The translations under genes and the position numbers were made by a program. From the NCBI GenBank assembly GCA_964490645.1, contig CAZBCL010000001.1:194334-258333 (forward strand): a stretch of DNA of 64,000 nt. The letters are read 5' to 3'. Positions within the stretch are counted from its first letter, which is position 1, and each line of letters opens with the position of its first letter. This stretch comes from an uncultured Spirochaetia bacterium (GTDB lineage Bacteria > Spirochaetota > JAHITG01 > CAZBCL01). Below the pieces are notes generated by a model. It was given only the letters and a program-made list of their open reading frames with translations. It did not search any database and was not told where the DNA came from. Below are positions 5,002-53,771 of this stretch, in pieces.

Positions 5002-6948
5002 ATGACTCATACAACCATTCGGTCAATCACCTATTGTCTGCTTTTTAGTATACTTTGTTTTCTGTGTACAACCTTACACGGCGCACAATCTATTGAAACA
5101 ATACTGAAAAACGCTAATGAATTACTTACCGCTGAAGACTATCATCGGGCATTAGCGGAATTCAAACATGCCCATAGTATTAACGCATATGACCCGCGTG
5201 TATATGACGGGCTTGCTCGTGTTTTTATACAACTTGGACGCACTGATGATGCTGATACTCATTTTAAAAAGGCAATACAAATCGACAGTTCAAGCACTGT
5301 TTTCCGGCTGCACTACGGATATTTTCTTATTGCCATGGCACGCTATGACAATGCCCAGACACAATTCAATACAATTCTCTCATATGAAATTCACAATCCC
5401 GATGCACTGGTCGGTATTGGTCGTATCCGGCTCGCCCGCGGAAACTATCGCGAAGCACGGCACTGGTGCACGGAAGCATTGAAGTTTGATGCCGCCCATA
5501 CAGGAGCACTTCGTCAACTTGGAGAAATCGCATTTGATCTCGAAGAATGGGATATTGCACAAAAGTATTTTACCCGTGCATATCAAATAGACCCGACAGA
5601 TGCAGATGTATTATTTTATCGTGCACGTCTTGCCGAACGGCAGGGCGATATGGAACGTGCTGCCGGATTTTATCGGCAGGCAGTTGATCGTGATCCGAAT
5701 AATGCCGATAAACAACATCAGCTGTATTTATTTTATGAACGACATAATCGATGGAATGATGCACTTGAAACACTTGCTGCCGTAACCGAAAAAGCAAAGG
5801 ATAATTTTCGTGCACATTATATGTATGCGTACGCACTGCTTCAAGCCGGACAAACAAAAAATGCAATGCATGAATTTGAAACATGTCTGCAATTAAATAG
5901 CGGAGATGAGTTTGCACGCTATTCATTGGAAAATGTGTATATTAAAACACAGTCATTCTATTATCCTCCGCGCATAGCTGCTGCACAGGAACATTTAAAA
6001 AAGGGTAATCGTGCATGGCAGCGGGGACATACATTTGAAGGACTTTGGGAAATGCGGCGGGGACTTCAGCTCAACGGTCAAAATGCAGAAGCACGCTATC
6101 GCCTCTCAAAACTATATCAGGATATGTCATTATATGTTTCATATATCCATGAACTGGAAATCGCACAAAAACTTGACCCTTCTGTTTCTTTATATCATAA
6201 TGAACTTGCTCATGCCGCTGATACACAACAGCACCGTTTAGCGGTACAATCCGATATCGATCAATATTCAATTAACCGCGCTGCAACGCGATTGTATATC
6301 GCACCACTGCAGCCGACTGTATATATGAACACGCATATAAACGGCGGGAATCTTCTTACGGATATGCTGCAAAACTGTTTTTATCAACTCGGAAGAATAA
6401 CCGTCCCACAACCGGATGAAGTAATACAAGCACTTCACGCCGCGCATCTTACTGCCGTACAATCACGGGCAGACGCACTTGCGGTCGCTGCACATCTTGA
6501 TGCGGATTATGTTTTGTGGGGACGCTACATAGAATATAATAATGAACTTCAACTTATTCTGCATTTAACGTCTCTGCATACTTTTGCAGACGTACACCAT
6601 TATCAGCTTCATGGCGAAGGCAACGGAAAAGTACACACGGTTATGATTGAACTTGCTGATGCCTTATATCGTGATATCCCGTATCACGGAGAAATCATTC
6701 AACATGATGAATGGGATATTCTGGTCAATATGGGTACGGTGCATGATATACAAAAAGGGCAAACCCTTGAAATATTTCGCGGTAATTTCTTTCAGAACTC
6801 AATACAGCCGATTGCAACAGCACAGGTTGTCGAGGTTGACGAACTTATATGCAAAGCACGCTTAAGCACCTATGCCGCACAAAACACTATCCGCCTGCAT
6901 GATTCTGTTCGTTTTCTCCCTGAAGATAATAACAGGACAGAACAATGA
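5002..6948 (+). CDS. Secreted TPR-repeat protein.
   Basis: N-terminal signal peptide (LLFSILCFLCTTLHGAQS). Multiple 34-aa TPR-like repeats with A/Y/F/L periodicity. GGGAGGGG ribosome-binding site. Confidence 0.75.
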   Translation: MTHTTIRSITYCLLFSILCFLCTTLHGAQSIETILKNANELLTAEDYHRALAEFKHAHSINAYDPRVYDGLARVFIQLGRTDDADTHFKKAIQIDSSSTVFRLHYGYFLIAMARYDNAQTQFNTILSYEIHNPDALVGIGRIRLARGNYREARHWCTEALKFDAAHTGALRQLGEIAFDLEEWDIAQKYFTRAYQIDPTDADVLFYRARLAERQGDMERAAGFYRQAVDRDPNNADKQHQLYLFYERHNRWNDALETLAAVTEKAKDNFRAHYMYAYALLQAGQTKNAMHEFETCLQLNSGDEFARYSLENVYIKTQSFYYPPRIAAAQEHLKKGNRAWQRGHTFEGLWEMRRGLQLNGQNAEARYRLSKLYQDMSLYVSYIHELEIAQKLDPSVSLYHNELAHAADTQQHRLAVQSDIDQYSINRAATRLYIAPLQPTVYMNTHINGGNLLTDMLQNCFYQLGRITVPQPDEVIQALHAAHLTAVQSRADALAVAAHLDADYVLWGRYIEYNNELQLILHLTSLHTFADVHHYQLHGEGNGKVHTVMIELADALYRDIPYHGEIIQHDEWDILVNMGTVHDIQKGQTLEIFRGNFFQNSIQPIATAQVVEVDELICKARLSTYAAQNTIRLHDSVRFLPEDNNRTEQ

Positions 6949-16761: not shown

Positions 16762-18075
16762 TTAATAAATAACGATATTATATTTACTTGCAATGACCCA
16801 ATCACGGCGGATTTTACGAAATATTAATCCGCGACGGCGGACTTCAATACCAACTGAATAAACAATATCATTATTCCGAAGCAGCACCGTTGAACTATTT
16901 ACCAATGCGATTAATTCTTTAACAGATGAAATGTTTTTCCATTCAGCATTTGGTGTTTTTATACGTATTATTTCATCGCCCGGCTTGAGCTTCATCTGTT
17001 TTCCCGCCGAATCAATAACAACTGCTGAACCGTTGCTGTTTGAATGCATTGATACGGTAAAATTGAAGAGTATTTTAAGAAGTACATTCGGAGCAAGGTA
17101 AAATACATCAGGACGAAGCTTTACAGTATTTGAAGGAGAAGATGTACTATACCGGTAATGCCAATAACATTCGATATCAGCAAGCGCACAGGAACGATAT
17201 GTATTTGAATAAATATCGCAGTCAATATCTGAAAAGCACGACGGCAATTCGCCGTCGTTATTCAAATATTCCGCAAGCGGGCTTTGTTCAATCGCCGCCC
17301 ATGAATTGATAACCCCATCAGCAATATCGGTTCGATGTGTTACTAAACCAAGATATGGGAAAAATGCCGGTTCTCCATTGCGGATTGACTGCAACGCCGC
17401 CCATGCTGTGTGAATAGGAATGTAATATCCGTATGGTATATTTGAAAGGGAATAATTGATAACCGCAATACCGGCAAGCGCACCATTTGACGTAAAAAGC
17501 GGCGCCCCGCTATTACAAGACATAAATGCAGGACGAGTCAAATTTCCGACCGGCAATGTATACCCGCGAATATCAAATGTTGTTGTTCGATGTACCGTGC
17601 ACGATGTATGTATCGGCATTTGATTTGAGAGATATCCAAGTAAAGTCAGTGTATCATCAATCTGCACCGGTTTTGTTATCGTGGTGATTTCCGGCACTGC
17701 AGGACTTGTCGGCAATTCAACCAATGCCGCATCAACGGTATCAAGTGTATACACTTTCTGAGATGACGCTGCATCAACATTAATAGAAATCTCCGGTATC
17801 GTATCATTCGCAATAATAATTCGGGAGGCGCCGTCAATAATATGCGCTGCGGTTAATAACATATTACTGATAATAATTCCTGAACCGTAATTGGTCCGAG
17901 TCGTAACCGTATACAGATCGTTAATACTAGTACGGGTAATAATTGTCGGTAATTCTGCAACCGTCCATTCACCGATAATTGTTAATCTGACCACCGCCGC
18001 TTCAGGAAGTGGTTGCGCATATGTACTGACAAGAACAGCAATAATAAGCCCTATAACAAAAATAGTGTATTTCAT
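16762..18075 (-). CDS. Periplasmic trypsin-like serine protease with a C-terminal PDZ-like domain (HtrA/DegP-like, divergent).
   Basis: Signal peptide. His motif MLLTAAHII. Ser motif CNSGAPLF. C-terminal KLKPGDEIIRI PDZ-like segment. Confidence 0.6.
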   Translation of the reverse strand: MKYTIFVIGLIIAVLVSTYAQPLPEAAVVRLTIIGEWTVAELPTIITRTSINDLYTVTTRTNYGSGIIISNMLLTAAHIIDGASRIIIANDTIPEISINVDAASSQKVYTLDTVDAALVELPTSPAVPEITTITKPVQIDDTLTLLGYLSNQMPIHTSCTVHRTTTFDIRGYTLPVGNLTRPAFMSCNSGAPLFTSNGALAGIAVINYSLSNIPYGYYIPIHTAWAALQSIRNGEPAFFPYLGLVTHRTDIADGVINSWAAIEQSPLAEYLNNDGELPSCFSDIDCDIYSNTYRSCALADIECYWHYRYSTSSPSNTVKLRPDVFYLAPNVLLKILFNFTVSMHSNSNGSAVVIDSAGKQMKLKPGDEIIRIKTPNAEWKNISSVKELIALVNSSTVLLRNNDIVYSVGIEVRRRGLIFRKIRRDWVIASKYNIVIY

Positions 18076-18078
18076 TAA

Positions 18079-19383
18079 TTATTCGACGTAAAAATGCACA
18101 GACCGTTCATCACATGCACCGGGGGCAAGTTTCATAATACCGAATTTTTTATCAAACGGTTCTTGGGCAGAGTGATCATCACACCCTTGCCATGGTTCAA
18201 TACAGATAAAAGGAGCATTCGGCGTTGACCAGATGCCAAGATGCGGCATATCGTTAAATTCAATAACTGAAGTTATTTTTGCAGCCGGATCATATAATTT
18301 TACCGTTCGGTTTTTTATATGCGTCATATCAAATGTATACGTCATGCCCAGTTCTTCTTCAGTAACAGGGAAAACCCCGCCAAGTGTTTTTTCTATTGAG
18401 GAACCGGTCATAAAAGAATTATTATCCATTTCATACTGCGTATACTGCCCATGCGGCAACAGCAGCTGAACGTTTGATTTTGTGCCTTTTTCGGTTACCG
18501 GTGATTTCAATCCGGGATGCCAGCCAAGCTGATAATACATATCAGTATTATCAGTATTCCGTACGGTCATCGTTACGGTTAATAAGGTGTTTGCACCGTA
18601 TCGGGAAAGTTCATACCGCACGATAAACTCATGTTTCCATGGATATACACAATCGTTAATCATACGCTCATTAATACCATACTCCGCCCATACGGAAACA
18701 TCAGTTGCGCCCGCACCGTATAATTGAAACTCAGTATCACGAGCAAATCCGTGATTGTTTAATTCAATACGGGTCCCATCAGTCATTACTGATTTTTTAT
18801 TAACCAACCCGCCGACTATCGGAAAAAGAAACGGCGCATGTCGTTTCCATCCGTTATGTGTTGGCGTCGGTTCACCGTCATTCCATAAAAGCGGTATCGT
18901 CGCTCCGGCCTTCAGCGCTCGTATGCTTATTAATTCAGCACCAACTCGGGCAATGGATATACGTAAATGCGGTGCAATCAGTTCATCCCGATCAGATAAT
19001 TGTTGAAAAGAGTATACTGCTTCTATATTATTTTTTTGTTGTTGTTTTGTCTTTCCTGAAAAATATATTAGCCAAATATTTCGGGCATAAACAAATGTCC
19101 CGAACGCCTGCCCGATAATAATAACAATATCCTCACGCCATATTGCATACGACAACAGCATCAGCCCGCCAATCAATGATAAAAACCAAAATGCCGGCGG
19201 CACAACACTGCGTTTTTTCTTTTCTGAGGTAATCCACTGGATAACCATTCTCCCGCCGAACATACACTGCGCAAGAAATCCGAAAAGTATCCAACCGACT
19301 ACTAAGGGATCATCAGAAAATAGTTGCCCTACTGCACGAACGGTATTTTTAATAAGATGACTTAAAATTGATACATACACCAT
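18079..19383 (-). CDS. Fusion protein: N-terminal lipid-A-biosynthesis N-terminal domain (LAB_N, 2-3 TM) plus C-terminal aldose-1-epimerase (mutarotase)-like domain.
   Basis: N-terminal LGWILFGFLAQCMFGGRMVIQWITSEKKKRSVVPPAFWFLSLIGGLMLLSYAIW looks like LAB_N. C-terminal NHGFARDTEF and beta-rich sequence resemble the aldose-1-epimerase fold. Lies 17 bp downstream of the GT2 gene. Confidence 0.55.
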   Translation of the reverse strand: MVYVSILSHLIKNTVRAVGQLFSDDPLVVGWILFGFLAQCMFGGRMVIQWITSEKKKRSVVPPAFWFLSLIGGLMLLSYAIWREDIVIIIGQAFGTFVYARNIWLIYFSGKTKQQQKNNIEAVYSFQQLSDRDELIAPHLRISIARVGAELISIRALKAGATIPLLWNDGEPTPTHNGWKRHAPFLFPIVGGLVNKKSVMTDGTRIELNNHGFARDTEFQLYGAGATDVSVWAEYGINERMINDCVYPWKHEFIVRYELSRYGANTLLTVTMTVRNTDNTDMYYQLGWHPGLKSPVTEKGTKSNVQLLLPHGQYTQYEMDNNSFMTGSSIEKTLGGVFPVTEEELGMTYTFDMTHIKNRTVKLYDPAAKITSVIEFNDMPHLGIWSTPNAPFICIEPWQGCDDHSAQEPFDKKFGIMKLAPGACDERSVHFYVE

Positions 19384-19400
19384 ATCTGTTTTACCACCTG

Positions 19401-20111
19401 TTAATAGTTCTTTTTAATGTGATATACAATATTTCTGTCTTTCATCCACCGTACGGCACGCAAATCCCGTGATGCCCGAAAAACACGATTCCATACGCCA
19501 TACTTTGCACTGCCGTATTTTCGATGTCGGTGATGTACCGGAATCTGTGCAATACGCCCGCCTTCCATTTCTATTAATGACGGGAAAAAACGATGCATTC
19601 CCTGAAACATTTTAATTTTTTGCAGCAGTGAAGTACGAATACATTTAAATCCGCAGCCGGTATCTTTAATTGATTCATGTAAAATCCGATTGCGCCACCA
19701 ATTTGCCAATCGTGATGAAATACGCCGTATAATGCTATCTTGCCGTCGAGTACGAATCCCGCACACAATATCAGCTTTTTGTGCAGCAGTATAAAAAGCC
19801 GGAATATCAGCCGGATCATCCTGTAAATCCGCATCCATAGTAATAACCCACTCACCGCGAACTTCACTGAATGCTGCATCAAGCGCAGATGATTTCCCAT
19901 AATTTCGGTCAAACTGAATAATTCGTATATGCTTATTTTTCTTGTGCAGCTTTTTTAAAACTGCCGGCGAACGATCAGTACTGCCGTCGTCGATACATAT
20001 AATTTCATATGACACCCGCATTCCCTGTAATACCGGAATTAATTCGGAGAACAGCTCCTCAAGGCTTTCTTCCTCATTACAGACGGGAATAATAATACTC
20101 AGTTTTATCAT
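19401..20111 (-). CDS. GT2 polyprenol-phosphate glycosyltransferase (ArnC/GtrB/DPM1-like).
   Basis: SIIIPVCNEEESL, ICIDDGSTD, ITMDADLQDDP (DXD). 236 aa, typical of undecaprenyl-phosphate sugar synthases. Confidence 0.85.
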   Translation of the reverse strand: MIKLSIIIPVCNEEESLEELFSELIPVLQGMRVSYEIICIDDGSTDRSPAVLKKLHKKNKHIRIIQFDRNYGKSSALDAAFSEVRGEWVITMDADLQDDPADIPAFYTAAQKADIVCGIRTRRQDSIIRRISSRLANWWRNRILHESIKDTGCGFKCIRTSLLQKIKMFQGMHRFFPSLIEMEGGRIAQIPVHHRHRKYGSAKYGVWNRVFRASRDLRAVRWMKDRNIVYHIKKNY

Positions 20112-20199
20112 GCAATTATACCTTCATTATTTTATAGTATCCATCAGACACCTGCAGTGTCATGTATTCACAACAGATATCTGTGCCGCTGCTTTTAAC

Positions 20200-22074
20200 C
20201 TATCTGTATTTATGGTTATTTTCCAGTAAATAATACGTCATAAATAATTTCTTTTCATCACCCTTGCCCTTCAGCCAATCAAGTATATCCGCTGTATCAA
20301 CTGAATACTGCCACGTTTTCTCTTCCCGCAGAATGTGCCATGATGGCGGCGGTTGCCACGTATCAGGAATAGTGTTTTTATACCCGCCAAACCATGGTAA
20401 CGGGGGATTGGATATCGGATTTTTTACGCCGCGACTGGTCGCAATAACAAGCCAGTTTGTTTCGTCATTTTTCTTTTCTTCAAGAAAGGCATCCGCTTGT
20501 GCCATCTGATATGGATAATATGCCGCATCAGGACGTTTATTCGCTTCAGCGGTTATCCATGACCAGCGTACATGATTGAGATTAATCATTGCAAATTGAG
20601 CATCTGCCTGTTCAGAAAATATTGTACGTGCCGCACGCGCTAACGATATTTCCGGATCAGGTTTTATTATTGGAAAGACAATCCCATACATGAGTGTCGG
20701 GAGCATGATATAAGTTATGCCAATAGCAAGAAGTGTTTCGTATGCTTTTTTCTTCCGTAATTGTACAAATGCAATTGTGATCGGAATAGGAATAATAAGA
20801 AATACGATAAGCAATGGGGTTATGGAAATATTCCATGGAATAAGTGCACGTCCTGCAGCTGAAAGGATAACTGCAATTATCAGCCCGGCAAACAAACCGC
20901 CCGCGGCAGCTCCCCATACTCCAACAGCAAGAATTGATGACCATATCTTTTGAGTAAAAACACGAGCCGAATGAAGTTTTTCCAGTGCTGCTGCCAGAGC
21001 GAGACTGAAAACAAATGTTAAATAAACCAGATAATTCGGTTTGTTACTAATAAGATATACCGTAAAAAGCATGACGAATCCAAAAAACACACTGTATAGA
21101 GTAAAAAGATTTCGTGTATCAGATAGATATTGTTTTTTTATTTTGCGCGAAAAAAGAATAATGAGTGCCGGTACTGACCAAGGGAAACAATAGCGGAGGA
21201 ACACCATCGGATACCACCATATATGATGCAATAATGTTTCATACGTCGCCCGTAAGCGACCGCTTTCCTCATGTGTAAGCCACCCCAGTAATGGGTCACG
21301 ATACGGGGTTGTCAGTAAAACAAGGTACCAGCCCAGCATTAACAGCACCATACTTAAAAAACCGGGAATACTGATTAAGCGAAGTAAATGTTTCCAACGG
21401 TTTTTACCTTTCGTGAACAGTGCAAATAACGGAAATACACCGACAGCATATAATGGGCCGACCGGACCTTTTAATGCACCACTAATGCCCAGTGATATCC
21501 AGCTTAATAATACAATAGTACGTTGATGCTTTTCTTTCTTTATCATACCAAGATACACTTCAAGAAATCCGTAAAACCCGGCACTCATAAATAAATTGTT
21601 TGCACTGTCAATCATTGCAACACGACTGTATTCAAATGTCAGAAACATGCCGGCATATATAAGCGCAGCAAGTTCACCAACACGATCACGATTATACAGG
21701 CGTTTTCCTGCAATCCAGAGTAATACCATTATCCCCAGCATGGATAATAAAGACGGCAGTCGCGCAACCCATATACGCACCCCAAGCAGTTTATAAAACG
21801 ACGCCACTATCCAATACCAGAGAATCGGTTTTTGGAAACGTTCCCGTTCAGCATAAAACGGCGGATGTACGGTGTCTTTTAAATATTGCGCAACAAGAAA
21901 ATCACCGGTGTCAAGCATACGCATCGGCGCATAAATATAAAAGGTTTCATCGCCCTGATATGATACCGGATTATCAATAACAAAACTAAAAAGAATCGTC
22001 GTTACGATAAGAAGAATAAGCAGCCGGACCGCAGAAGCATCATTGGCGGATAACCGTAATTGTTTCATTGCCAA
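20200..22074 (-). CDS. ArnT-like GT-C family glycosyltransferase (GT83), polytopic membrane protein.
   Basis: YQGDETFYIYAPMRM resembles the ArnT/PMT DE-x-x-Y motif. About 12 TM helices. 624 aa. Lies 12 bp downstream of metG. Confidence 0.75.
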   Translation of the reverse strand: MAMKQLRLSANDASAVRLLILLIVTTILFSFVIDNPVSYQGDETFYIYAPMRMLDTGDFLVAQYLKDTVHPPFYAERERFQKPILWYWIVASFYKLLGVRIWVARLPSLLSMLGIMVLLWIAGKRLYNRDRVGELAALIYAGMFLTFEYSRVAMIDSANNLFMSAGFYGFLEVYLGMIKKEKHQRTIVLLSWISLGISGALKGPVGPLYAVGVFPLFALFTKGKNRWKHLLRLISIPGFLSMVLLMLGWYLVLLTTPYRDPLLGWLTHEESGRLRATYETLLHHIWWYPMVFLRYCFPWSVPALIILFSRKIKKQYLSDTRNLFTLYSVFFGFVMLFTVYLISNKPNYLVYLTFVFSLALAAALEKLHSARVFTQKIWSSILAVGVWGAAAGGLFAGLIIAVILSAAGRALIPWNISITPLLIVFLIIPIPITIAFVQLRKKKAYETLLAIGITYIMLPTLMYGIVFPIIKPDPEISLARAARTIFSEQADAQFAMINLNHVRWSWITAEANKRPDAAYYPYQMAQADAFLEEKKNDETNWLVIATSRGVKNPISNPPLPWFGGYKNTIPDTWQPPPSWHILREEKTWQYSVDTADILDWLKGKGDEKKLFMTYYLLENNHKYR

Positions 22075-22086
22075 TATCCTTATCAG

Positions 22087-24180
22087 TTATTTAACCTTAC
22101 CGACAATATTATTTGTCGGAACAACCGGTTTAGTGCCGGCACGTAATGCGTGGTTATTATAATAAACACCATCTGCACGTGCGGTTATCGGGCACGCAAA
22201 AAAATCATCAATAGTAATTTGTTCCAAGGGGGCAGGTTCAATACCTGCCGCCGTAATCGGGGTTCCCGGTTCAGCCTGCACACTCACCAGTGCCGTTTGT
22301 CCGTCAGCATTACTTGCCGCAAGCAGCATCCCCTGACTTTTTTGACCGCGTAATTGGACCGGTTTTAAATTTGCTACGATGCATATTGTTTGTCCGACTA
22401 ATTCTTCCGGTGTATAAAACGCCGCAAGCCCGGCAACAAGCTGCCGTTGACCAAGTATACCGACATCAATCTGCAGTACTAATAATTTATCGGCATTCGG
22501 ATGTGCTTCACACTGCACAACCTTTGCAGCACGCAAATCAATTGACGCAAACGGATCATGTTCATATAAATCAAAATCCTCTAATTTTTTAATCGGTGGT
22601 GACGGCACACCAATCGTATGACCGCGCAAATCATTGCCAAGATCATCCCACGTAAGCGGGTCAACTTGCAACTGTTGTTCAATTATCTCAGCAACACTCG
22701 GAATAATTGCTTTGAGTGGAATGATTATATCACGCACTAAATGAAGGCATGAGCCAAGCACTGCTTCCGCGTGTGTAGGATTTTCCTTAATAATTTTCCA
22801 TGGTTCATTGTTTTGAAAATATTTATTTCCGGCTGTTGCAATATCCAGAATTGTCCTCACCGCCGCACGCAGATTAATAGCAAGAAACTGCTGTTTCACT
22901 GTATCAAATGCCTCACGTAATACAGCATGCGGACCATCAGCATCAACCGCATTAATCTGTCCGTTGAAATTTTTCTTAATAAACGTCAACGTTCGATTAC
23001 AAAAGTTTGCAATTGTCCCGATAAGCTCACTGTTTATACGGTTTTTAAAATCATTAAAATCCAAATCAATGTCAATCATTTTGCCGGAAAGGTTTGCTGC
23101 ATAATAATACCGCAAATACAGCGGGTCGAATTTTTGTAAGTATTGTGATGCCTGAATAAATGTTCCACGGCTTTTACTCATTTTTTGTTTACCGACAGTA
23201 AGAAATCCATGAACATGAATGGCATCAGGAAGATGCATCCCCGCACCGATAAGCATCGCCGGCCAATAAATGAAATGATGATAGATAATATCGCGTCCGA
23301 TGAAATGAATAAGTTCATTCTTGCTCGGCATAATATACTCTTCAACCGCTGCAGTATGTTCAGAACACCATTTATCACATGACCCAAAATAACCGACGGG
23401 GGCATCCCACCAGACATAATAATATTTATCAGTCGTTCCCGGAACGGGGAAGCCAAAATAAGGGGCATCACGAGTAAAATCCCAATTGCGCAATCCCTCT
23501 TCTATCCAATTATTAATATAATTCACGACTTCTTCCTGAAGACGGGCATTACGCAACCATGCAATTAATTGATCGCGCACTGCATCAAGTTTGAAAAAAA
23601 GATGTCGTGTTTTTTTCAGTATCGGTTTTGTACCGCTGATAACACTACGCGGATCTTTAAGTTCAGTCGGTTTATATGCCGCACTACAGGATTCACAGGA
23701 ATCACCATATTGATCCTCTGCGCCGCATTTCGGACATATCCCTTTTACAAAACGATCCGGCAGAAATATGTTTTCTTTCGTATCAAAAAGCTGTTCTATT
23801 TCTTCTTCAATAATATTACCGGCTTCTTTGTTTTTGGTATAAATATAATCCGTCCATTTTCGTGCTTCATCAGAATGGGTTGAATGAAATGTATCAAATG
23901 TTATACGAAAGGCAGTAAACTCACGTATATGGTCCTTATAACTCTCTGCAATAAGCTGTTCAGGGGTAATTCCTCGTGTACGTGCATTAACCATAATCGG
24001 AGTGCCATGCGTATCATCAGCACAACAGTAAATAATGTCATCCCCAAGCAAACGACGAAATCGTACGTAAATATCTGTTTGTATATATTCCACCAAATGA
24101 CCGAGGTGAATCTGTCCATTGGCATATATTAATGCTGACGTTACCAGTGTTTTTTTTGCAGGGACAGGTGAATTCGCCAT
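22087..24180 (-). CDS. metG: Methionyl-tRNA synthetase with a C-terminal tRNA-binding domain.
   Basis: HIGH-type motif IHLGHLVEY. KMSKS present. Zinc knuckle CPKCG...CESC. C-terminal EMAP/Trbp111-like domain. Confidence 0.95.
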   Translation of the reverse strand: MANSPVPAKKTLVTSALIYANGQIHLGHLVEYIQTDIYVRFRRLLGDDIIYCCADDTHGTPIMVNARTRGITPEQLIAESYKDHIREFTAFRITFDTFHSTHSDEARKWTDYIYTKNKEAGNIIEEEIEQLFDTKENIFLPDRFVKGICPKCGAEDQYGDSCESCSAAYKPTELKDPRSVISGTKPILKKTRHLFFKLDAVRDQLIAWLRNARLQEEVVNYINNWIEEGLRNWDFTRDAPYFGFPVPGTTDKYYYVWWDAPVGYFGSCDKWCSEHTAAVEEYIMPSKNELIHFIGRDIIYHHFIYWPAMLIGAGMHLPDAIHVHGFLTVGKQKMSKSRGTFIQASQYLQKFDPLYLRYYYAANLSGKMIDIDLDFNDFKNRINSELIGTIANFCNRTLTFIKKNFNGQINAVDADGPHAVLREAFDTVKQQFLAINLRAAVRTILDIATAGNKYFQNNEPWKIIKENPTHAEAVLGSCLHLVRDIIIPLKAIIPSVAEIIEQQLQVDPLTWDDLGNDLRGHTIGVPSPPIKKLEDFDLYEHDPFASIDLRAAKVVQCEAHPNADKLLVLQIDVGILGQRQLVAGLAAFYTPEELVGQTICIVANLKPVQLRGQKSQGMLLAASNADGQTALVSVQAEPGTPITAAGIEPAPLEQITIDDFFACPITARADGVYYNNHALRAGTKPVVPTNNIVGKVK

Positions 24181-27241: not shown

Positions 27242-28636
27242 ATGACTAAAACAAAAAAAGTATTTGATTTTACAAACAATTTGAAACATTTTCTCTCCAA
27301 AGAAATCTGGTCAATAAACCTGAACAAAATTGAAAACCCCGTTAAACGTTTTTTATATAGTCAGTTGCGGGCATTTATGATAGTCGGACGCGGTTTTTCG
27401 GAAGACCGTCTTGCTATTCGCTCAGGAAATTTAACCTATATCTCTGCATTTTCACTTATACCGGTACTTATGATGGGTATATGGTTTGCAACGGTTATCA
27501 TTGGTGCTGCACAGGTTGAAACGGTTATTCGTCAGCAAGGACATCAATTAGGAGACTTTTTCCAACCCCTCATTGAATATGCAATGCTTGTTGTTAACAA
27601 TGCCGGCACAATTGGTCCGGTTGGTTTTATTGTTCTATTGATCATGATGATAGGAGCGTTCAATAATATCGAACAGACTTTTAATATGGTATGGGGAGTT
27701 CATGAACACCGAAAGATTTATCGGAAAATGACTGATTATCTTTTTATTTCGCTGATTCTCCCAATGCTCTTCTTTGCCGCATTGTATCTGATGACTATTG
27801 TTCAGCAAGCAGGTAATATTGATGAAAATATTGCCGGCACACTGGGAAAAGAAGGTCTAACGTTTGTTGAGTTATTAGGAAAATCATTTATCCTCCGGAA
27901 AATAATGTCAGTTATATCGTATGCCATTGTCTGGCTTGTACTATTGCTGTTTTATTTAATTATGCCGAATACCAATGTTAAATTCGCGCCGGCATTTACC
28001 TCATCCATAATCGCAGGAACCCTTCTGCTGATCGTCTATGAATTTGTAACCCATTTTGCATTTGGACGTACAGCCGGCGGCGAACATCCGGTACTCAGCC
28101 TTTTCGGACCATTTGCCATTATTCCGCTCTCATTGTTATTTATCAATTATGTTTGGATGGTTATTCTTATCGGTGTTGAATTATCATTTGCATATCAGAA
28201 CCTGCATACCTATCGTCAGGAACGAGCAATAGAGCATGCATCTACAGGAGCGCAAGTACGCCTTGGTCTTGCCTGTCTTATTGCAATCAGTCAACGATTT
28301 CATGCCGGTGAAGAGCCATATACCGCGATGGAATTATCAGAACGTTTTAATGTCCCGACACGAACACTGAATGCTGTTTTACACATTCTCACCGAACATA
28401 AATTGCTGTCATTTATAGCACAGCCGAATAATGCATATCTGCCGCTGAAAGATTTCAGCACTTTTACTATTAATGATGTTGAACAGGTTATCACATGGTG
28501 GGGAGACTTTGATCCGGCTGTAAGTGACAGTAAGATACGGCTGCATATAACTAAGGTGTATCAGAAAATTATTGCCGGTGCAAAAAAAGCAGGCGGTAAT
28601 ATTTCCATTAAACAGCTTGCAGAATCATTAAAATAA
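27242..28636 (+). CDS. YihY/BrkB-family inner-membrane protein with a C-terminal extension.
   Basis: LAIRSGNLTYISAFSLIPVLMMG is typical of the YihY/BrkB N-terminus. 6 TM helices. About 130-aa soluble C-terminal domain. Confidence 0.8.
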   Translation: MTKTKKVFDFTNNLKHFLSKEIWSINLNKIENPVKRFLYSQLRAFMIVGRGFSEDRLAIRSGNLTYISAFSLIPVLMMGIWFATVIIGAAQVETVIRQQGHQLGDFFQPLIEYAMLVVNNAGTIGPVGFIVLLIMMIGAFNNIEQTFNMVWGVHEHRKIYRKMTDYLFISLILPMLFFAALYLMTIVQQAGNIDENIAGTLGKEGLTFVELLGKSFILRKIMSVISYAIVWLVLLLFYLIMPNTNVKFAPAFTSSIIAGTLLLIVYEFVTHFAFGRTAGGEHPVLSLFGPFAIIPLSLLFINYVWMVILIGVELSFAYQNLHTYRQERAIEHASTGAQVRLGLACLIAISQRFHAGEEPYTAMELSERFNVPTRTLNAVLHILTEHKLLSFIAQPNNAYLPLKDFSTFTINDVEQVITWWGDFDPAVSDSKIRLHITKVYQKIIAGAKKAGGNISIKQLAESLK

Positions 28637-31784: not shown

Positions 31785-32113
31785 TTAATTCACGGCGAGT
31801 TTAACTATCCGATACGATTTCATATGAAGCAGGTGAAAATTCGGAATCATGTATATCAACACTCTTCATAAAAAAGATTAATAAATTCTATACTATTTAC
31901 ATTTTATGGCACATATCCCCCGATCTATTATTTAAAATCCTGTTATTATTGCATTGTTATACAGTTTGTTTTGTAGTTGTATTAATATGTTCCAACGATA
32001 ATATAATTGATATACAATACATTTCTTCGCCCCATTTACTATCAGATATACTATTCTGCTGCACTATGAGACTGCCATGAATAATAATTAATTACGTTGT
32101 TTTTATGATTATC
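31785..32113. repeat. Direct repeat copy A (329 bp), 328/329 identical to copy B.
   Basis: Aligned by eye base for base with 33897..34225. Single G/A difference at 32079 vs 34191. Confidence 0.9.
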
Positions 32114-33737
32114 TGTTACTTTTTTCTTTTTTTACAACCACTAAATGCGTATAGTTTGAATCAATAGTATATTTATACTTTTCTTTTAATTGAAACGCGT
32201 CCAGTACTTTTGTTTGAAGCAGCGCCAATTCATCCTTATAAACAATAAAATAATCAGGATCATTCCGTAGAATCGGCTCTATTGTCGGATTTTGAGAAAA
32301 GGAAACCGTGCTATAATTTTCAAAATATTTTAATAAGTACATATTTACACATAAAGTGTTCTTTTTATCAATTTGATTAATAATCTTTTCCACATCTACT
32401 GATATTTCTTTAACTTTCTGATCAGTATGTAATGTTAAAAACCGCCAACACCTACCAATAGGACTGCCGATAATGGCTGTTACTAATAATACTATTACTA
32501 TCCCTGTAAGGATATATAATACAGTTTTATTGTTTTTCGTTGTGCTTTTTTGTATCGTATGCGTATCATTACTTTCATGTGCGGTCTTCCGTGCATTGCA
32601 AAGCAAACAATATTTTCCGGAAATAATACTGCTTGCAATTACTTCTAATCGATGCAAACCAACAACAAACGCCAAAAATGCAAAACTATATATTTGTGTA
32701 AAATGCCAGCTGCATTCTGTCAAAAACGGACAATTTTGCATTAATACTAACTTCGGCAATTGCAGTAATAAAATTTCCGGACATAAAAGACTTATATATA
32801 AAAATGATTTCGTATTGATTAAAATCTTTTTAAGTATAGATATATTTATTATGAGCCATGGATGCATTAACAAATACACACCAACCTTAAAAACGTTATC
32901 CCCGTATTCCCCGTTTTTTGAAACCAGCGCCATATTATACGTCATGCTATGTGCGATTGAATATGAATAGTGCGAATAATGCTTTATTAATAGTGTTGCA
33001 CCAATAAAGTATACTCCACTTATAAGTAATGTAATCAAAGCCGTTTTTCTCATCTCTTTTTTAAGGAAAAGAAAAAACGCAAACAGTATCATATAGACAG
33101 CCATTTCTTCTTTAATCAAAAGAATTGCCGCTAAGCATATATAATATGCAAATTTATTATTTTTTATAATAATAAAATAAAACGCCCATATAATTGCCGG
33201 CAAAAACAGCATATCAGGATGAAAACCGTACACACTATCATTGAACAATCGTATATGATTCGGGATAATCAAGTATAATAATGCAACAAGAAATGGAAGA
33301 AGCCGAAATGTATTGGTATTATCTTTCGGACGTATATCTAACGACGTGATAGTTGTGTCAACTATTGCATAAACTGGAAATAGTGCCGAAACATACGCCA
33401 ATGTCCATAGCACTAAAAGGGCAATTGCCGATTTAAATAACGCAACAACCGGAAGAAAAAGAAGTAATAGTAAATATGCGTGTATCCCAAGCTGAAAACC
33501 ATATATGTTTTCATAAAAAAAATGTCCATGCAATGAGTTATTTAATACTTGATAATATAAAAACAAATCAGAACAATATTTCAAATTATTGAAATGCCAC
33601 AGCTTATAAAATAAAAAGAAAACAAATGCGACACCAAAAAGTATCAATAAACTAAAATGAAAACTTTTCGCGGCAGCTGCTTCATTAACAGCAAGCGCAT
33701 CTGATGACGGAAGTTGTGATTGTACGTTTCTCTTCAT
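32109..33737 (-). CDS. Polytopic membrane protein of unknown function (possible GT-C-fold or DUF2079-like), 542 aa.
   Basis: At least 12 hydrophobic helices. Rich in F/L/Y/K. The stop codon lies inside repeat copy A. Confidence 0.5.
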   Translation of the reverse strand: MKRNVQSQLPSSDALAVNEAAAAKSFHFSLLILFGVAFVFFLFYKLWHFNNLKYCSDLFLYYQVLNNSLHGHFFYENIYGFQLGIHAYLLLLLFLPVVALFKSAIALLVLWTLAYVSALFPVYAIVDTTITSLDIRPKDNTNTFRLLPFLVALLYLIIPNHIRLFNDSVYGFHPDMLFLPAIIWAFYFIIIKNNKFAYYICLAAILLIKEEMAVYMILFAFFLFLKKEMRKTALITLLISGVYFIGATLLIKHYSHYSYSIAHSMTYNMALVSKNGEYGDNVFKVGVYLLMHPWLIINISILKKILINTKSFLYISLLCPEILLLQLPKLVLMQNCPFLTECSWHFTQIYSFAFLAFVVGLHRLEVIASSIISGKYCLLCNARKTAHESNDTHTIQKSTTKNNKTVLYILTGIVIVLLVTAIIGSPIGRCWRFLTLHTDQKVKEISVDVEKIINQIDKKNTLCVNMYLLKYFENYSTVSFSQNPTIEPILRNDPDYFIVYKDELALLQTKVLDAFQLKEKYKYTIDSNYTHLVVVKKEKSNR

Positions 33738-33896
33738 TAATTTATGCTAGTATTTTGATATTAAGAAGTCAAGAATTATAAACTCAACTATATTACTGAA
33801 ATAATAATATCAAAATATACCGATATGATACTATTCTGCACACCGTAAAATAACAAATATTTGAAACTATATAAATCATACATCACTGCTGAATAT

Positions 33897-34225
33897 TTAA
33901 TTCACGGCGAGTTTAACTATCCGATACGATTTCATATGAAGCAGGTGAAAATTCGGAATCATGTATATCAACACTCTTCATAAAAAAGATTAATAAATTC
34001 TATACTATTTACATTTTATGGCACATATCCCCCGATCTATTATTTAAAATCCTGTTATTATTGCATTGTTATACAGTTTGTTTTGTAGTTGTATTAATAT
34101 GTTCCAACGATAATATAATTGATATACAATACATTTCTTCGCCCCATTTACTATCAGATATACTATTCTGCTGCACTATGAGACTGCCATAAATAATAAT
34201 TAATTACGTTGTTTTTATGATTATC
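33897..34225. repeat. Direct repeat copy B (329 bp).
   Basis: See copy A. The two copies are offset by exactly 2112 bp. Confidence 0.9.
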
Positions 34226-34370: not shown

Positions 34371-35318
34371 ATGTATCAACGAATGCCATGCATTATACGT
34401 ATCGGAATAATTATATTCATACTCGGAACGATATCGATATCACATGCTGAAATCATGCGTGTTGCCGTAATGGATTTAAATCCGCAAGGTGTTGATGAGA
34501 ATACTTCACGTGGTGTCAGCGACCTTATCCGCGGAGAACTCATTGGCCGCGAAAATCTGATTATTGTCGAACGTGGTCAAATGAATCGTATTCTTGAAGA
34601 ACAGGGGTTTCAGCAATCAGGCTGTTCCGATACCGAATGTGCGGTACAAATAGGAAAATTACTAAGTGCACAATACATGATACTCGGATCAGTAACAAAA
34701 TTCGGCACGACATTCACCATATCCGTTCGCATGGTTGATGTTGAAAAAGGGACCGGGATTGCCAGTGAATCGACTGATGCTCATGGTGAATCAGAATTAC
34801 CGGGGACAACACGTTATCTTGTTAATAATCTTGTTGAGAAAATCAATACTGCCCGCTCACAATCAACACAAACACCATCACGCAAAATAAAAACAGACTC
34901 ATCTCAAAAAACACGAAAGAATACATCATTACACCAATTCCGCAACAATGCTCGCCCATTATTACGGACATGCGCATATATTGGTTATGCAGGAGCACTC
35001 GGAATGGGGGTTATGGGAATAATGGCAAATACTGAACTAAAAACATATAAAAACGAATCAGAAGATCTGTATCAGAAATACAACAAAGAACCGAGTTCCC
35101 AAAACTGGGAAAGTTATGAATCGCATTATACTACAATGAAAGACACGCAAAAAAAGCGGAACTCATATTATGCAATGAGTGTCGGTTTTTGTGCAGTCTC
35201 AACGGTTCTTTTCCTCATTCCGGGTCCTGCTGCAACTGCCGGGACATTCATACGTGAACATATTGTTCTTGTACCAACTGCTGATACCACAAGCATTTAT
35301 ATTAATTATAGGTTTTAA
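34371..35318 (+). CDS. Secreted protein with an N-terminal LpoB/CsgG-fold-like domain and C-terminal hydrophobic segments.
   Basis: MRVAVMDLNPQG...LIIVERGQMNRILEEQGFQQSGCSD...AVQIGKLLSAQYMILGSVTKFGTTFTISVRMVDVEKG follows the LpoB/CsgG-type pattern. GGGAG ribosome-binding site. Confidence 0.5.
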   Translation: MYQRMPCIIRIGIIIFILGTISISHAEIMRVAVMDLNPQGVDENTSRGVSDLIRGELIGRENLIIVERGQMNRILEEQGFQQSGCSDTECAVQIGKLLSAQYMILGSVTKFGTTFTISVRMVDVEKGTGIASESTDAHGESELPGTTRYLVNNLVEKINTARSQSTQTPSRKIKTDSSQKTRKNTSLHQFRNNARPLLRTCAYIGYAGALGMGVMGIMANTELKTYKNESEDLYQKYNKEPSSQNWESYESHYTTMKDTQKKRNSYYAMSVGFCAVSTVLFLIPGPAATAGTFIREHIVLVPTADTTSIYINYRF

Positions 35319-47170: not shown

Positions 47171-47530
47171 ATGGCAAAAGTTCTGTTAGCAGATGATTTA
47201 GCATTTATCAAAATGGTTCAGCAGGAAGTACTCAAAGATAATGGATTTGAAGTTGTCGGCGATGCTGTTGACGGTGTTGATTGTGTTGAAAAATATAAAA
47301 AACTGCGCCCTGATATTGTCATTATGGATATTACCATGCCGCGTATGGATGGATTGAATGCATTACGGGCAATTTTAAGTCAGGATAAAAAAGCACGTGT
47401 TGTAATATGCTCAGCATTAGGACAGCAAAAATTGATTATTGAAGCCATAAAAGCAGGGGCAAAGGATTTTATTGTCAAACCCTTCCAGCCTGAACGACTT
47501 CTTTCCGCATTACATAAAGCCATGAAATGA
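47171..47530 (+). CDS. cheY: Chemotaxis response regulator CheY (single REC domain).
   Basis: KVLLADD, DIVIMDITMPRMDG, ICSALGQ, K in DFIVKPF: canonical receiver-domain residues. Confidence 0.88.
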   Translation: MAKVLLADDLAFIKMVQQEVLKDNGFEVVGDAVDGVDCVEKYKKLRPDIVIMDITMPRMDGLNALRAILSQDKKARVVICSALGQQKLIIEAIKAGAKDFIVKPFQPERLLSALHKAMK

Positions 47531-48969
47531 AACGTATCGTCTGGATAATTCTGATAACAGCACTATTTTACTCAACGTCTTCGGCATTCCTCTTTTTTAA
47601 AAAGAAACCTCCCCGCTCGGAAAAAATTACCGTGAGTGTTCATGACAAACCATACCGCCTTATAGCGATACTTCCTTTTACAAACCGTACTGGAAAAAGT
47701 GAGTTTGATTATCTGAGTCTAAGCATACCCCATTACCTGCATTCCGCACTCACCTCAATAACAAACGTTATCGTATCAACGAATGATATTGCTGTTGCAC
47801 CGGCATTACTAACCAATACCAATGTTATACTTTCTTATGACAAAGACTTTAATCGCACGGTGAAGGTTCTTTCAATGAAAAGCGTTGTATCACTCTTAAC
47901 GCAATGCACTGCATGCCATTCGTTAGCGGCAACCGCAACAAACCTTGCGGTTGACTATGTGGTATACGGATCATTTACTGGTTCATCTCGGGATAATCTC
48001 TCATTTAAAACATATTTGTATTTCGTACAGCGCCAAAGCAATGCCGGTCCGTTTGAATTATCGTATCACGGCGATGCACTGAATGCGCCTCCAAAAATAG
48101 CAGCCCAAATAAAAGCAGCGTTTTATCATACACCCGGCGGCGCATTAACCGTTACTTCCGATCCGCCGGATGCCCTCATTTATGCGAATGGACGATACTG
48201 CAATCGCACACCTTTCACCATAGAATATTTGCCGGTTGGCACATATGTTATAACAGTCCGAAAAGACGGATGGCACACACAATCAAATACTATTTGCATG
48301 ACAACAAATGGATATGCCTTAACAAACATTACACTACTGAATGCGCGAACTGCTGCACCAATTGCTATCACGACTTCTCCGACGAATGCATTAATTATGT
48401 TTGATGCACGCCCGATCGGAAAAACACCATTGATCGTTTCAAACCTTGTTCCCGGGCGTTATCGAATACGCTTGAGTGCTCCCGGATATATTAATGAGTA
48501 TCATCGAATACGTATTAATAAAACCGCGAACCGCCCGCTTATGATAACGATGCAGCCGAAAACTCGTACAAATGAAATCGCACGTATTTATCACCAATCA
48601 CGTTGTCTTATGTGGACATTCACGGGGACAGGACTTGCACTGACTATCGGAGCGGTAATTGCTATCGGAGAAGTTGAACGAAATCAGGAATTGCCGGCAA
48701 CGATTGCATATGATAATCCGAACAAGGAGACGCTCATTAATGAATACTATCGAAAAGAAACACTGTGGCGATCTGCAGCAATTGCCTGCGGTTCACTTTC
48801 ATTAGTATCATATGTTACTGCAATTATTTTTATGATAAAAGCAGCGAATTATTCAAGTTATGAATACGGCATGATATTAAATACGCCATCAGATCGTATA
48901 GTGCATCCACTCCCTGCGATAATCAGCCCGCACTACTGTGCCGTACAGCTGATACAAAAACAATTTTAA
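47527..48969 (+). CDS. Secreted PEGA-domain protein with a C-terminal TM anchor.
   Basis: Two PEGA-like blocks (LTVTSDPPDALIYANGRYCNRTPFTIEYLPVGTYVITVRKDGW; IAITTSPTNALIMFDARPIGKTPLIVSNLVPGRYRIRLSAPGY). Signal peptide. ATGA overlap with the cheY stop. Confidence 0.65.
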   Translation: MKRIVWIILITALFYSTSSAFLFFKKKPPRSEKITVSVHDKPYRLIAILPFTNRTGKSEFDYLSLSIPHYLHSALTSITNVIVSTNDIAVAPALLTNTNVILSYDKDFNRTVKVLSMKSVVSLLTQCTACHSLAATATNLAVDYVVYGSFTGSSRDNLSFKTYLYFVQRQSNAGPFELSYHGDALNAPPKIAAQIKAAFYHTPGGALTVTSDPPDALIYANGRYCNRTPFTIEYLPVGTYVITVRKDGWHTQSNTICMTTNGYALTNITLLNARTAAPIAITTSPTNALIMFDARPIGKTPLIVSNLVPGRYRIRLSAPGYINEYHRIRINKTANRPLMITMQPKTRTNEIARIYHQSRCLMWTFTGTGLALTIGAVIAIGEVERNQELPATIAYDNPNKETLINEYYRKETLWRSAAIACGSLSLVSYVTAIIFMIKAANYSSYEYGMILNTPSDRIVHPLPAIISPHYCAVQLIQKQF

Positions 48970-53400: not shown

Positions 53401-53771
53401 AAAAAAACAAATGCGCCGATACTCTGAGCAATAATTAACCCCGATAGTGTAGCATTCAGCACATTAAACAACGGAGCATACAACCATGCAACAGCGCGAA
53501 TAATAACCGGTGTTAAAACCGTAAAAATAATAAATACTATCAATGCAAAGAGTGCACTATTTCTCGGACCGTGAAAAACCCGATCCCGCAGGCTCGTCAT
53601 TGAAGAATGTAAACTCATTATACTTAATAGAACAAGTGAACAACTGCCTATTAATACCGGCATTATCGTTCCGTCGCCCCCCAACATTAATGCAAGTGAA
53701 CGAAGCCAAACGGGCAGTATTCCGCCGCAGCCGATACCAAAAAATATTATTGCAAAATAAAATATATTCAT
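50460..53771 (-). CDS. Giant fusion protein: polytopic membrane domain + spermidine-synthase-like (PABS-fold) domain + C-terminal TPR repeats (1103 aa).
   Basis: About 14 TM helices in the N-terminal half. Gly-rich Rossmann loop VLVAGSGLGITLGSAG. TPR repeats at the C-terminus. Its ATG overlaps the TAA of the upstream paralog by 1 nt. Confidence 0.7.
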   Translation of the reverse strand: MNIFYFAIIFFGIGCGGILPVWLRSLALMLGGDGTIMPVLIGSCSLVLLSIMSLHSSMTSLRDRVFHGPRNSALFALIVFIIFTVLTPVIIRAVAWLYAPLFNVLNATLSGLIIAQSIGAFVFFAVPVFAVHFGFQAIRECIVSFKRKEQHVLSAAGVFILSAAFGFALVGFMVLPHMDISIIAVLCGVSILPGVGLLWLYRGRALGVRTLPAGEHTSASDARVQHMHVSDTSQSPEIHALRQQQIIRIFKQVSAFCIGVGMTGTALLVWYLGNLVGGTSWGITLRILVFFITGVGVGWLVRSIAFKKNNPTAHIESAVVLISILTVFVSLLLLRGIPVHSVMYLNQLFSEMNQAAAMTSRNLMMPFFYVWLTYRYALIIIIPAFVWGLMLGQLFCMPHLLRDFISDAMTVRRKNARMFLLGTVFGVCGIALCGVAAIGSYYSFISAVGILGIAAILNAFTRTTVIRIQKAIFPFVILIVFLCLIIIIPSDIRLMAIGAFNKAPELQSQAGELLEQRPWASDTLLHRAALLNRRFETTAEEFGTAFTIIDEASENNAVLLENGYACLASRNDVVMQQLLAHIPLLLHKQPTSVLVAGSGLGITLGSAGLYKLKTITYLSPSYHDVALQKEYFDLFSYKVWSDERLKIRYGTPSAIHYLGEKYDSIIMRYEINALTTGAELSYSVLSGIHERMSDDGYVCVLLPMYDINNTDIKSFIQTFISVFDHAALFQAHYGSEYILMGADIPIEFDLPQVQRRLDTMTLQTVLALNKLNSVESIISTFICADADLRAWAGEGAIIKNTGIRAAYQMPLSLYKRATADELRDLFEHRSRVLNYISPSSGDEKYMRLLRSIDRVWEHEGRLIELTGILDTMNSIDRMAPDERQKEYDHLETKMYNLCSELIEVNPANYSASQVVIDRYYFDAQMMRRLGNTNEMIQRYKDIANIDPTYKNINIKLARHYFGLIPKDTEKYGPLCQKYTILANEYNRRCNNFNIREIEAMVYYQVGMPDVAISKLEALSRETDEGFHFDLQLGDIYLRSGDKIQAREYYQKTLQRDPHNVDALLRLAELDLTAGNAKTAQRRCVQALRYDPANVQAYQLLKRL

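Follow-up and report, generated by a model that had tools for sequence, protein, structure and literature searches.

The 64-kb window analyzed here, a stretch of 64,000 nucleotides from a contig of an uncultured Spirochaetia bacterium, carries a run of five minus-strand genes whose three central members make up a module of the kind seen in three-component glycosylation systems. From 5' to 3', the open reading frame (ORF) list gives metG, a GT-C glycosyltransferase, a family 2 glycosyltransferase (GT2), a fusion of a LAB_N membrane domain with an aldose-1-epimerase (mutarotase) domain, and a trypsin-like protease. The first-pass annotation, which had described these ORFs with their strand and order, was accurate on each count, and the Gtr/Arn-type anatomy that it recognized, a GT2, a small membrane protein and a GT-C enzyme, is present. 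The three genes of the module are the following.

20200-22074, minus strand: GT-C of the PMT_2/PMT type, 622-624 amino acids (Pfam, NCBIfam and transmembrane prediction)
19401-20111, minus strand: short GT2, 236 amino acids, with the DXD motif in ITMDADLQDDP (Pfam Glycos_transf_2 and NCBIfam)
18079-19383, minus strand: LAB_N-mutarotase fusion, 434 amino acids, a single ORF (Pfam LAB_N and Aldose_epim)

The genes of the run are closely spaced. The GT-C ORF begins at a TTG codon (624 amino acids), and the public gene call starts two codons inside, at the ATG at 22068 (622 amino acids). It is separated from metG by 12 bp, or by 18 bp with the ATG start; 88 bp then lie between GT-C and GT2, 17 bp between GT2 and the fusion, and 3 bp between the fusion and the protease. 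The 12-bp and 3-bp gaps had been reported before and were confirmed. The next gene, ppx, is preceded by a 166-bp gap and by a strong promoter-like site.

The GT-C protein matched Pfam PMT_2 (1.3e-11) and PMT (2.3e-10) and has about 11 transmembrane (TM) segments followed by a soluble C-terminal region of about 150 amino acids. The DE-x-x-Y motif quoted for it reads GDETFY and is located just past TM1, in the predicted first periplasmic loop. On sequence grounds, the protein is predicted to be the periplasmic transfer enzyme. It is an orphan: in a search of 5.8 billion proteins the next-best homologue was 24% identical, and its identity to the GT-C enzymes of the LAB_N loci described below is 23-29%. 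The GT2, in which the quoted ITMDADLQDDP motif was found as claimed, matched Glycos_transf_2 with an E value of 3.9e-34 and is predicted to be a polyprenyl-phosphate sugar synthase. Its nearest NCBIfam models are ArnC (149 bits versus a cutoff of 529), PgfS and PpgS. For the GT-C the nearest model is ArnT (35.5 bits versus a cutoff of 567). The labels ArnC-like and ArnT-like given in the first-pass annotation therefore stand at the superfamily level, whereas both enzymes score far below the equivalog cutoffs of Arn proper. The GT2 alignment spans positions 7-213 of the 316-position ArnC profile, the C-terminal TM part being absent, and TM prediction found no TM segment in the GT2 of the window, unlike in GtrB and ArnC.

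Both halves of the fusion were identified by Pfam, in agreement with the domains that had been proposed. LAB_N (PF07578) covers residues 35-104 (E = 1.6e-30; 105 bits versus a cutoff of 26.7; profile positions 2-71 of 71), and Aldose_epim (PF01263) covers residues 137-422 (E = 4.5e-15; 56 bits versus a cutoff of 27). The parts of the protein are located as follows.

19027-19383, minus strand: membrane module, residues 1-119, an amphipathic N-terminal helix and three TM helices (Pfam and models)
19072-19281, minus strand: LAB_N domain, residues 35-104 (Pfam)
19012-19062, minus strand: fusion junction, residues 108-124 (alignment, start-codon scan and model)
18082-19011, minus strand: aldose-1-epimerase beta-sandwich, residues 125-434 (Pfam match at 137-422 and model)

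At the junction, a lysine-rich LAB_N tail (SGKTKQQQKNN) is followed by residues that align to the N terminus of stand-alone mutarotases. Model confidence is lowered there, with a predicted local distance difference test (pLDDT) score of 58 at residues 111-120. No ATG, GTG or TTG codon occurs between residues ~108 and 140, and the mutarotase half can therefore not be translated alone. The 434-amino-acid protein is present in identical form on 4 contigs of different lengths, possibly not independent assemblies, in five sources (NCBI, JGI/IMG, Logan, ENA and GEM), which makes a one-off assembly or frameshift artefact less likely. An assembly or sequencing error that joined two genes across a stop codon or frameshift would fit the fact that the relatives of each half are all separate proteins. 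Against such an error speak the identical product, the continuous frame, the missing start codon of the second half and the AlphaFold model, in which the helix continues into the first strand; we consider it very improbable.

When 5.8 billion proteins were searched by word index, the query was the only entry with both domains, and the other matches were stand-alone, mutarotase-like proteins of ~312-320 amino acids with at most 51% identity. Nor did a second LAB_N-mutarotase fusion emerge when 1.84 billion representatives of clusters formed at 50% identity were searched exhaustively with phmmer. The best 150 matches other than the query cover either residues ~24-121 or residues ~130-434 but never both, and a fusion with even 30% identity across both halves would be expected among them. 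The protein is thus a singleton in this search, and the remark in the first-pass annotation that it did not recognize the fusion as characterized holds. Among all LAB_N proteins retrieved, the fusion (P0001) is the only one with a single LAB_N domain and a long C-terminal extension; in the 84 LAB_N ORFs from other genomes introduced below, at most 63 residues follow the domain. A metagenome scan yielded no close relative of the fusion. Since, in addition, the best relative of the GT-C is so distant, the lineage was judged to be poorly sampled. The fusion is genuine and, at present sampling, unique to this one lineage; on present evidence it is, in itself, a single-lineage curiosity. A different mutarotase fusion was encountered in P0205 (532 amino acids), in which DUF2161, a putative PD-(D/E)XK phosphodiesterase, precedes Aldose_epim.

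The GT2-LAB_N(-GT-C) arrangement, by contrast with the fusion, is strongly conserved across phyla and no peculiarity of the window. It was evaluated in 84 LAB_N loci, comprising the best 80 of at least 598 LAB_N matches in species-representative genomes together with loci L004-L007. The query of the genome scan was an alignment of 7 LAB_N sequences; a 17-sequence version was too diverse for the pattern scan. The loci span at least 11 phyla, and their sources include Alpha-, Beta- and Gammaproteobacteria, Planctomycetota, Acidobacteriota, Verrucomicrobiota, Gemmatimonadota, Methylomirabilota and Thermodesulfobacteriota, among others. Identity between their LAB_N domains and that of the window is 44-63%, and the closest relatives, at 55-63% identity, stand alone, have a length of about 100 amino acids and are encoded by genes that overlap the end of a GT2 gene. 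A homologue of the window GT2 is located directly upstream of LAB_N on the same strand in 72 of the 84 loci (86%). As an internal control, only 4 GT2 matches were found elsewhere in the 16-kb flanks of these loci. The proposal that LAB_N occupies the slot of GtrA or ArnE/F was thereby borne out in many phyla. The GT2 proteins preceding LAB_N (73 loci) are 29-49% identical to that of the window, have no TM helices and end a median of 5 amino acids past the end of the window GT2, and the GT2 and LAB_N genes often abut or overlap.

GT-C homologues were searched for with a hidden Markov model iterated from the window GT-C. They were found within 5 kb of LAB_N in 53 of the 84 loci (63%), directly downstream in 35, and in 49 of the 63 GT2-linked loci that have at least 1.5 kb of downstream flank (78%). 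All 10 representative GT-C proteins that were checked were validated as Pfam PMT_2. The 12 loci without GT2 (L014, L030, L035, L045, L057, L062, L064, L073, L074, L078, L082 and L084) have a GT-C nearby in only one case. Their LAB_N proteins are extended at the N terminus by about 100 amino acids and constitute a subgroup of their own. An N-terminal signal peptide or anchor with a soluble extension of ~70-100 amino acids was noted for eight of these loci (L014, L030, L035, L057, L062, L073, L074 and L082) and for the proteins P0214, P0222, P0232 and P0254, mainly from Planctomycetota, Verrucomicrobiota and Acidobacteriota, and this type of LAB_N may play a different role. A single GT2-LAB_N ORF, which a crude gene map had indicated in L009, was not confirmed at the domain level.

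Plasmid records from named genera display further variants of the arrangement. In Paracoccus, the order is LAB_N, GT39, GT2 and an NAD epimerase/dehydratase. In Cetobacterium, a two-component system and a GT39 gene are followed by GT2, LAB_N, a dehydratase, a UDP-glucose dehydrogenase and another GT39, a layout like that of arn. On a plasmid of Hymenobacter sp. HDW8 (L095, 4614-5282), two separate LAB_N genes adjoin each other, with a two-component system, a sugar-nucleotide dehydratase and a GT39 nearby; by analogy, this pair suggests a heterodimer comparable to ArnE/ArnF. GT2 also abuts LAB_N in Paenibacillus, which has no lipid A. Tandem LAB_N domains can be covalently fused to GT-C enzymes of the PMT_2 and GT87 types, and extensions of this kind were present in 8 of 55 tandem LAB_N proteins.

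Accessory genes were noted beside several of the loci. In L004, in which the order is GT-C, PAP2, GT2 and LAB_N, the PAP2 phosphatase gene (5605-6492) is located between the two glycosyltransferase genes. In Rhodobacterales loci such as L017, L020, L029, L063 and L069, a protein of ~240-255 amino acids with 4-6 TM segments recurs after the GT-C. Along with the two-component systems of L089 and L095, these two observations hint that many of the LAB_N triads modify lipid A or lipopolysaccharide after dephosphorylation.

A connection between LAB_N and three-component glycosylation was not met in the literature that was searched, which was poor in subscription journals, so that a prior description is possible. 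The mentions of LAB_N that surfaced there were in a paper on chlamydiae and, under the InterPro label, in Saudek 2012. The GT2-LAB_N-GT-C class is widespread and apparently undescribed. The third components known from such systems are GtrA, small multidrug resistance (SMR) proteins such as ArnE/F, MATE proteins and Wzx proteins (PMC11127046, PMC8035078), and LAB_N is not among them.

Models of LAB_N consist of an amphipathic N-terminal helix and three TM helices, with pLDDT scores of 70-85. The inter-repeat linker of tandem LAB_N proteins, ~43 residues long, contains a TM-like segment in 51 of 54 cases, resulting in a 3+1+3 layout; the working unit would therefore be a parallel pair of bundles, and single-domain LAB_N most likely acts as a parallel dimer. 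The invariant polar residues R45, Q49, S53, E54, R101 and N102 are located in the cytoplasmic halves of TM1 and TM3, and conservation of intramembrane polar residues of this sort would be unexpected in a passive anchor. The predicted three-TM bundle, the conserved glutamine in TM1 and the tandem 3+1+3 forms are all shared with the SemiSWEET, SWEET and PQ-loop proteins. In 7 of 17 LAB_N sequences, matches to MtN3_slv were obtained that are below threshold and in register, and no LAB_N sequence tested matched the PQ-loop Pfam model. The top Foldseek match in the PDB was the Escherichia coli SemiSWEET 4X5M, and a SWEET, another SemiSWEET and cystinosin were also among the only 10 matches. The resemblance to SemiSWEETs in sequence and fold is weak but consistent, and membership in the superfamily is supported at a sub-threshold level, by these weak matches and by the presumed Pfam clan of LAB_N. 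It should be noted that SemiSWEETs carry free sugars, unlike the lipid-linked cargo proposed here for LAB_N.

LAB_N is predicted to have its N terminus outside and its C terminus inside the cell. Loop 1 (SEKKKRS in the fusion) and the tail after TM3 each hold a family mean of 2.7 lysine and arginine residues, whereas the opposite side averages 1.3-1.5. In several LAB_N proteins, the domain comes after what looks like a cleavable signal peptide and a soluble segment. Moreover, LAB_N is N-terminal to the cytoplasmic LpxB domain of the chlamydial-type model NF002173 and to TM1 of the GT-C in the GT-C fusions, and the stand-alone relatives of the mutarotase have no signal peptide. From this evidence, the mutarotase domain is predicted to be cytoplasmic; the periplasmic location that had been considered for it was rejected. 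In the AlphaFold model of the full fusion (mean pLDDT of 91), the TM3 helix extends as far as residue 119, the first beta-strand begins at residue 125, and the tether between the two halves is accordingly short.

We favor, with confidence somewhat above even, the view that the locus encodes an extracytoplasmic glycosylation module composed of a GT2, a LAB_N donor handler and a GT-C, to which a cytoplasmic mutarotase has been added in this lineage. At the inner membrane face, the TM-less GT2 would charge polyprenyl phosphate with a sugar taken from its nucleotide-activated form. LAB_N, a dimer of three-TM, SemiSWEET-like bundles, would dock the synthase and take over the lipid-linked sugar, and it would most probably carry the head group across to the outer leaflet, as GtrA, ArnE/F or MATE proteins do elsewhere. 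The PMT_2-type GT-C would then pass the sugar to an acceptor in the envelope. The LacX-type mutarotase, fused to the cytoplasmic C terminus of LAB_N by a short helical tether, would be held just under the membrane. The topology, the dimerization, the flipping, the sugar, the acceptor and any role of the mutarotase are points that we infer.

In the GtrA/GtrB/Gtr*, ArnC/ArnE-F/ArnT and MATE-dependent GT136 pentofuranose systems, a GT2, a small membrane protein and a GT-C are likewise encoded together (PMC11127046, PMC8035078). The window shares with the Gtr and Arn systems the DXD motif and an acidic motif in the first periplasmic loop, and some LAB_N clusters resemble arn loci in having two-component regulators and enzymes that modify sugar nucleotides. 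In contrast to the Gtr and Arn systems, the third component is LAB_N, which belongs to no recognized flippase family and, in the window, carries a mutarotase domain. Chlamydial-type LpxB (NF002173/PRK01021) offers a parallel for the latter, with LAB_N as an N-terminal membrane module and a cytoplasmic sugar-handling enzyme at the C terminus, and the LAB_N part of the fusion matches positions 139-217 of this 610-position NCBIfam model. There, however, LAB_N is tandem rather than single, and the enzyme is a GT-B lipid A disaccharide synthase instead of a mutarotase.

Several points weigh against this interpretation. About one-quarter of the GT2-LAB_N pairs have no GT-C within 5 kb, the link to the mutarotase is known from a single lineage, and the GT-C is an orphan. 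In Bordetella, lgmD, the fourth lgm gene, was reported to be non-essential for the glucosamine modification of lipid A (PMC4993483). The tight coupling of LAB_N to a TM-less GT2 would fit an activator like GacJ equally well (PMC8035078).

The GacJ precedent leads to another explanation, in which LAB_N anchors or activates the TM-less GT2, as GacJ or DPM2/3 would, while an unlinked or general flippase moves the donor and the mutarotase is merely tethered beside the synthase. In Streptococcus pyogenes, GacI is a TM-less GT-A synthase that is paired with the small three-TM protein GacJ, as GT2 is with LAB_N here, and a separate Wzx-type flippase, GacK, is present (PMC8035078). The absence of TM helices from all LAB_N-linked GT2 proteins, the frequent abutting or overlap of the two genes, and the conservation of the GT2-LAB_N pairing, which at 86% exceeds that of the GT-C link at 63%, are in keeping with this explanation. 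GacJ presumably belongs to a different family than LAB_N. In eukaryotes, DPM1 with DPM2 and DPM3 forms a parallel case of a TM-less synthase with small membrane partners. The non-essential lgmD would support an activator only if LgmD is a LAB_N protein, as it may be. RgtF had been considered as a further small membrane protein and was dropped, since it is presumably a GT-C. On the other side, a plain anchor would need neither the invariant intramembrane arginine, glutamine and asparagine nor a SWEET-like 3+1+3 tandem architecture, and tandem LAB_N is fused to GT-C rather than to GT2, which points to the donor-delivery side. Furthermore, unlike the Gac system with its own flippase, the 64-kb window contains no GtrA-, SMR-, MATE- or Wzx-like ORF and no other flippase candidate. 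We therefore regard a role confined to anchoring or activation as less likely, although activator and donor-handling roles of LAB_N may coexist.

A more far-reaching version of the donor-handling role is that LAB_N proteins, with their SWEET/PQ-loop bundle, make up a new and widespread family that translocates polyprenyl-phosphate monosaccharides or acts as their chaperone, and that LAB_N is the bacterial counterpart of MPDU1/Lec35, the mutarotase-fold domain being a working part. The lipid-linked sugar would be taken over directly from the docked TM-less synthase and delivered to the GT-C enzymes. In this case, the mutarotase would serve sugar supply, head-group binding or gating on the cytoplasmic face. 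MPDU1 is needed for all lumenal transfers that depend on dolichyl-phosphate monosaccharides, which are GT-C reactions (PMC3281891, PMC7809446), and it would fill the same functional niche as the LAB_N genes. Its mechanism is unresolved, and it has been termed a "dolichol chaperone" (PMC7809446). We hold this extended version to be a rather doubtful one. The movers of polyprenyl- and dolichyl-phosphate monosaccharides are poorly established; in the endoplasmic reticulum, neither have the scramblases of Man-P-Dol and Glc-P-Dol been identified nor has the role of MPDU1 been defined (PMC7809446). LAB_N offers a specific candidate family, amenable to genetic tests in the culturable Paracoccus, Cetobacterium, Hymenobacter and Paenibacillus. 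As a lead, the conserved GT2-LAB_N-GT-C arrangement is more valuable than the fusion.

The mutarotase half of the fusion was modeled with pLDDT scores above 94. It resembles the LacX-like "galactose mutarotase related" proteins (3DCD, 3Q1N and 3K25) in sequence, fold and motifs: Foldseek gave a TM-score of 0.83 at 22-25% identity to 3Q1N and 3DCD, and the sequence matches had E values of 1e-20 for 3DCD and 1e-17 for 3Q1N. GalM, YeaD and hexose-6-phosphate mutarotases were the structures next in rank. Unlike the fusion, these LacX-like proteins are soluble, stand-alone structural-genomics targets without a membrane domain, and they have no assigned substrate. The motifs HGFAR, GWHPG and CIEPW are kept, as are all residues that are invariant over 58 relatives, including H211, H289, E396 and D403; this half is thus no decaying remnant. 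By motif position (HGF, GxHPxF and xEP), we tentatively equate H211, H289 and E396 with His96, His170 and Glu304 of GalM. Mutarotation needs a free hemiacetal or anomeric hydroxyl, and in a polyprenyl-phosphate sugar C1 is locked in a phosphodiester. An action of the mutarotase on the lipid-linked donor was therefore rejected, since the anomeric carbon is esterified.

In the first-pass annotation, the three genes had been proposed to belong together. This is correct for GT2, LAB_N and GT-C but not for the mutarotase half, which has no counterpart in any of the 84 LAB_N loci, is fused in this singleton only and has its relatives elsewhere. Six genomic contexts of stand-alone relatives were inspected, and none has LAB_N, GT2 or GT-C nearby. 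In two of them, the mutarotase gene is located between Adenine_glyco and IspD, with arginine-biosynthesis genes; three show the order Yip1-MshEN-T2SSE-PatA_N-mutarotase by GFO/IDH/MocA oxidoreductases and a BadF-type kinase; and one includes a deacetylase, a ROK kinase, an MFS transporter, GH2 and GH20. Judging by sequence and context, the subfamily looks like ordinary cytoplasmic enzymes of sugar salvage or catabolism.

The fusion might, accordingly, be a neutral accident: two neighboring genes of unrelated function would have been joined when the stop codon separating them disappeared, with the mutarotase keeping its ordinary salvage role. Loss of a stop codon between abutting genes is suggested by the clean junction, which joins a LAB_N tail of normal length to approximately residue 2 of the mutarotase. 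The singleton status of the fusion, the lack of any mutarotase in the LAB_N loci and the sugar kinases, oxidoreductases, glycoside hydrolases or unrelated syntenies around the six relatives all fit an accident as well. Against it, neither half has lost a conserved residue, the identical protein is found on 4 contigs, and fusions that persist usually mean a functional link. In addition, other LAB_N clusters often include cytoplasmic sugar-modifying enzymes (epimerase/dehydratases and UDP-glucose dehydrogenase), a pattern into which an accessory sugar enzyme would fit. We consider a neutral fusion a serious contender, though one with a slightly less than even chance. The mutarotase is either a tethered accessory enzyme of sugar supply, as an add-on to the glycosylation module would be, or the result of a neutral fusion of two once-adjacent genes.

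The module is flanked by the first and last genes of the run.

22087-24180, minus strand: metG, methionyl-tRNA synthetase (Pfam metG domains), first gene of the run, given for context only
16762-18075, minus strand: trypsin-like serine protease, 437 amino acids, predicted to be secreted, last gene of the run (Pfam Trypsin_2)

A functional signal in the adjacency of metG was looked for and not found. The protease had been called HtrA-like. Its trypsin-like nature is supported by the Trypsin_2 match, and its N terminus is signal-peptide-like, but Pfam found no PDZ domain, and the label is loose. No homologue of the protease occurs in any of the 84 LAB_N loci. Any tie of the protease to the glycosylation module is hypothetical.

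Elsewhere in the window, a second GT-C of the PMT_2/PMT type (619 amino acids, ~12 TM segments) is encoded at 861-2720 on the plus strand, with neither GT2 nor LAB_N beside it; it could use the same lipid-linked donor. Two abutting, paralogue-like proteins of 1,103 and 1,037 amino acids are encoded on the minus strand at 50460-53771 and 53771-56884. Both have 12-14 predicted TM segments in an N-terminal half without a Pfam match and TPR repeats at the C terminus, an architecture that resembles TMTC-/PMT-TPR-type GT-C or O-antigen-polymerase-like proteins. A DUF2079 membrane protein (542 amino acids, ~10 TM segments; 32109-33737, minus strand) is located in the stretch of lowest GC content (30%, 32001-34000), and many consider DUF2079 to be GT-C-like. 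In the 64 kb, no Rfam family reached its gathering score, tRNA and rRNA included. GC skew is negative nearly throughout the window, which fits the predominance of minus-strand genes. Three envelope proteins encoded on the plus strand, a CsgG-like lipoprotein (34371-35318), a PEGA-domain protein (47527-48969) and a BrkB-family membrane protein (27242-28636), are consistent with a diderm organism.

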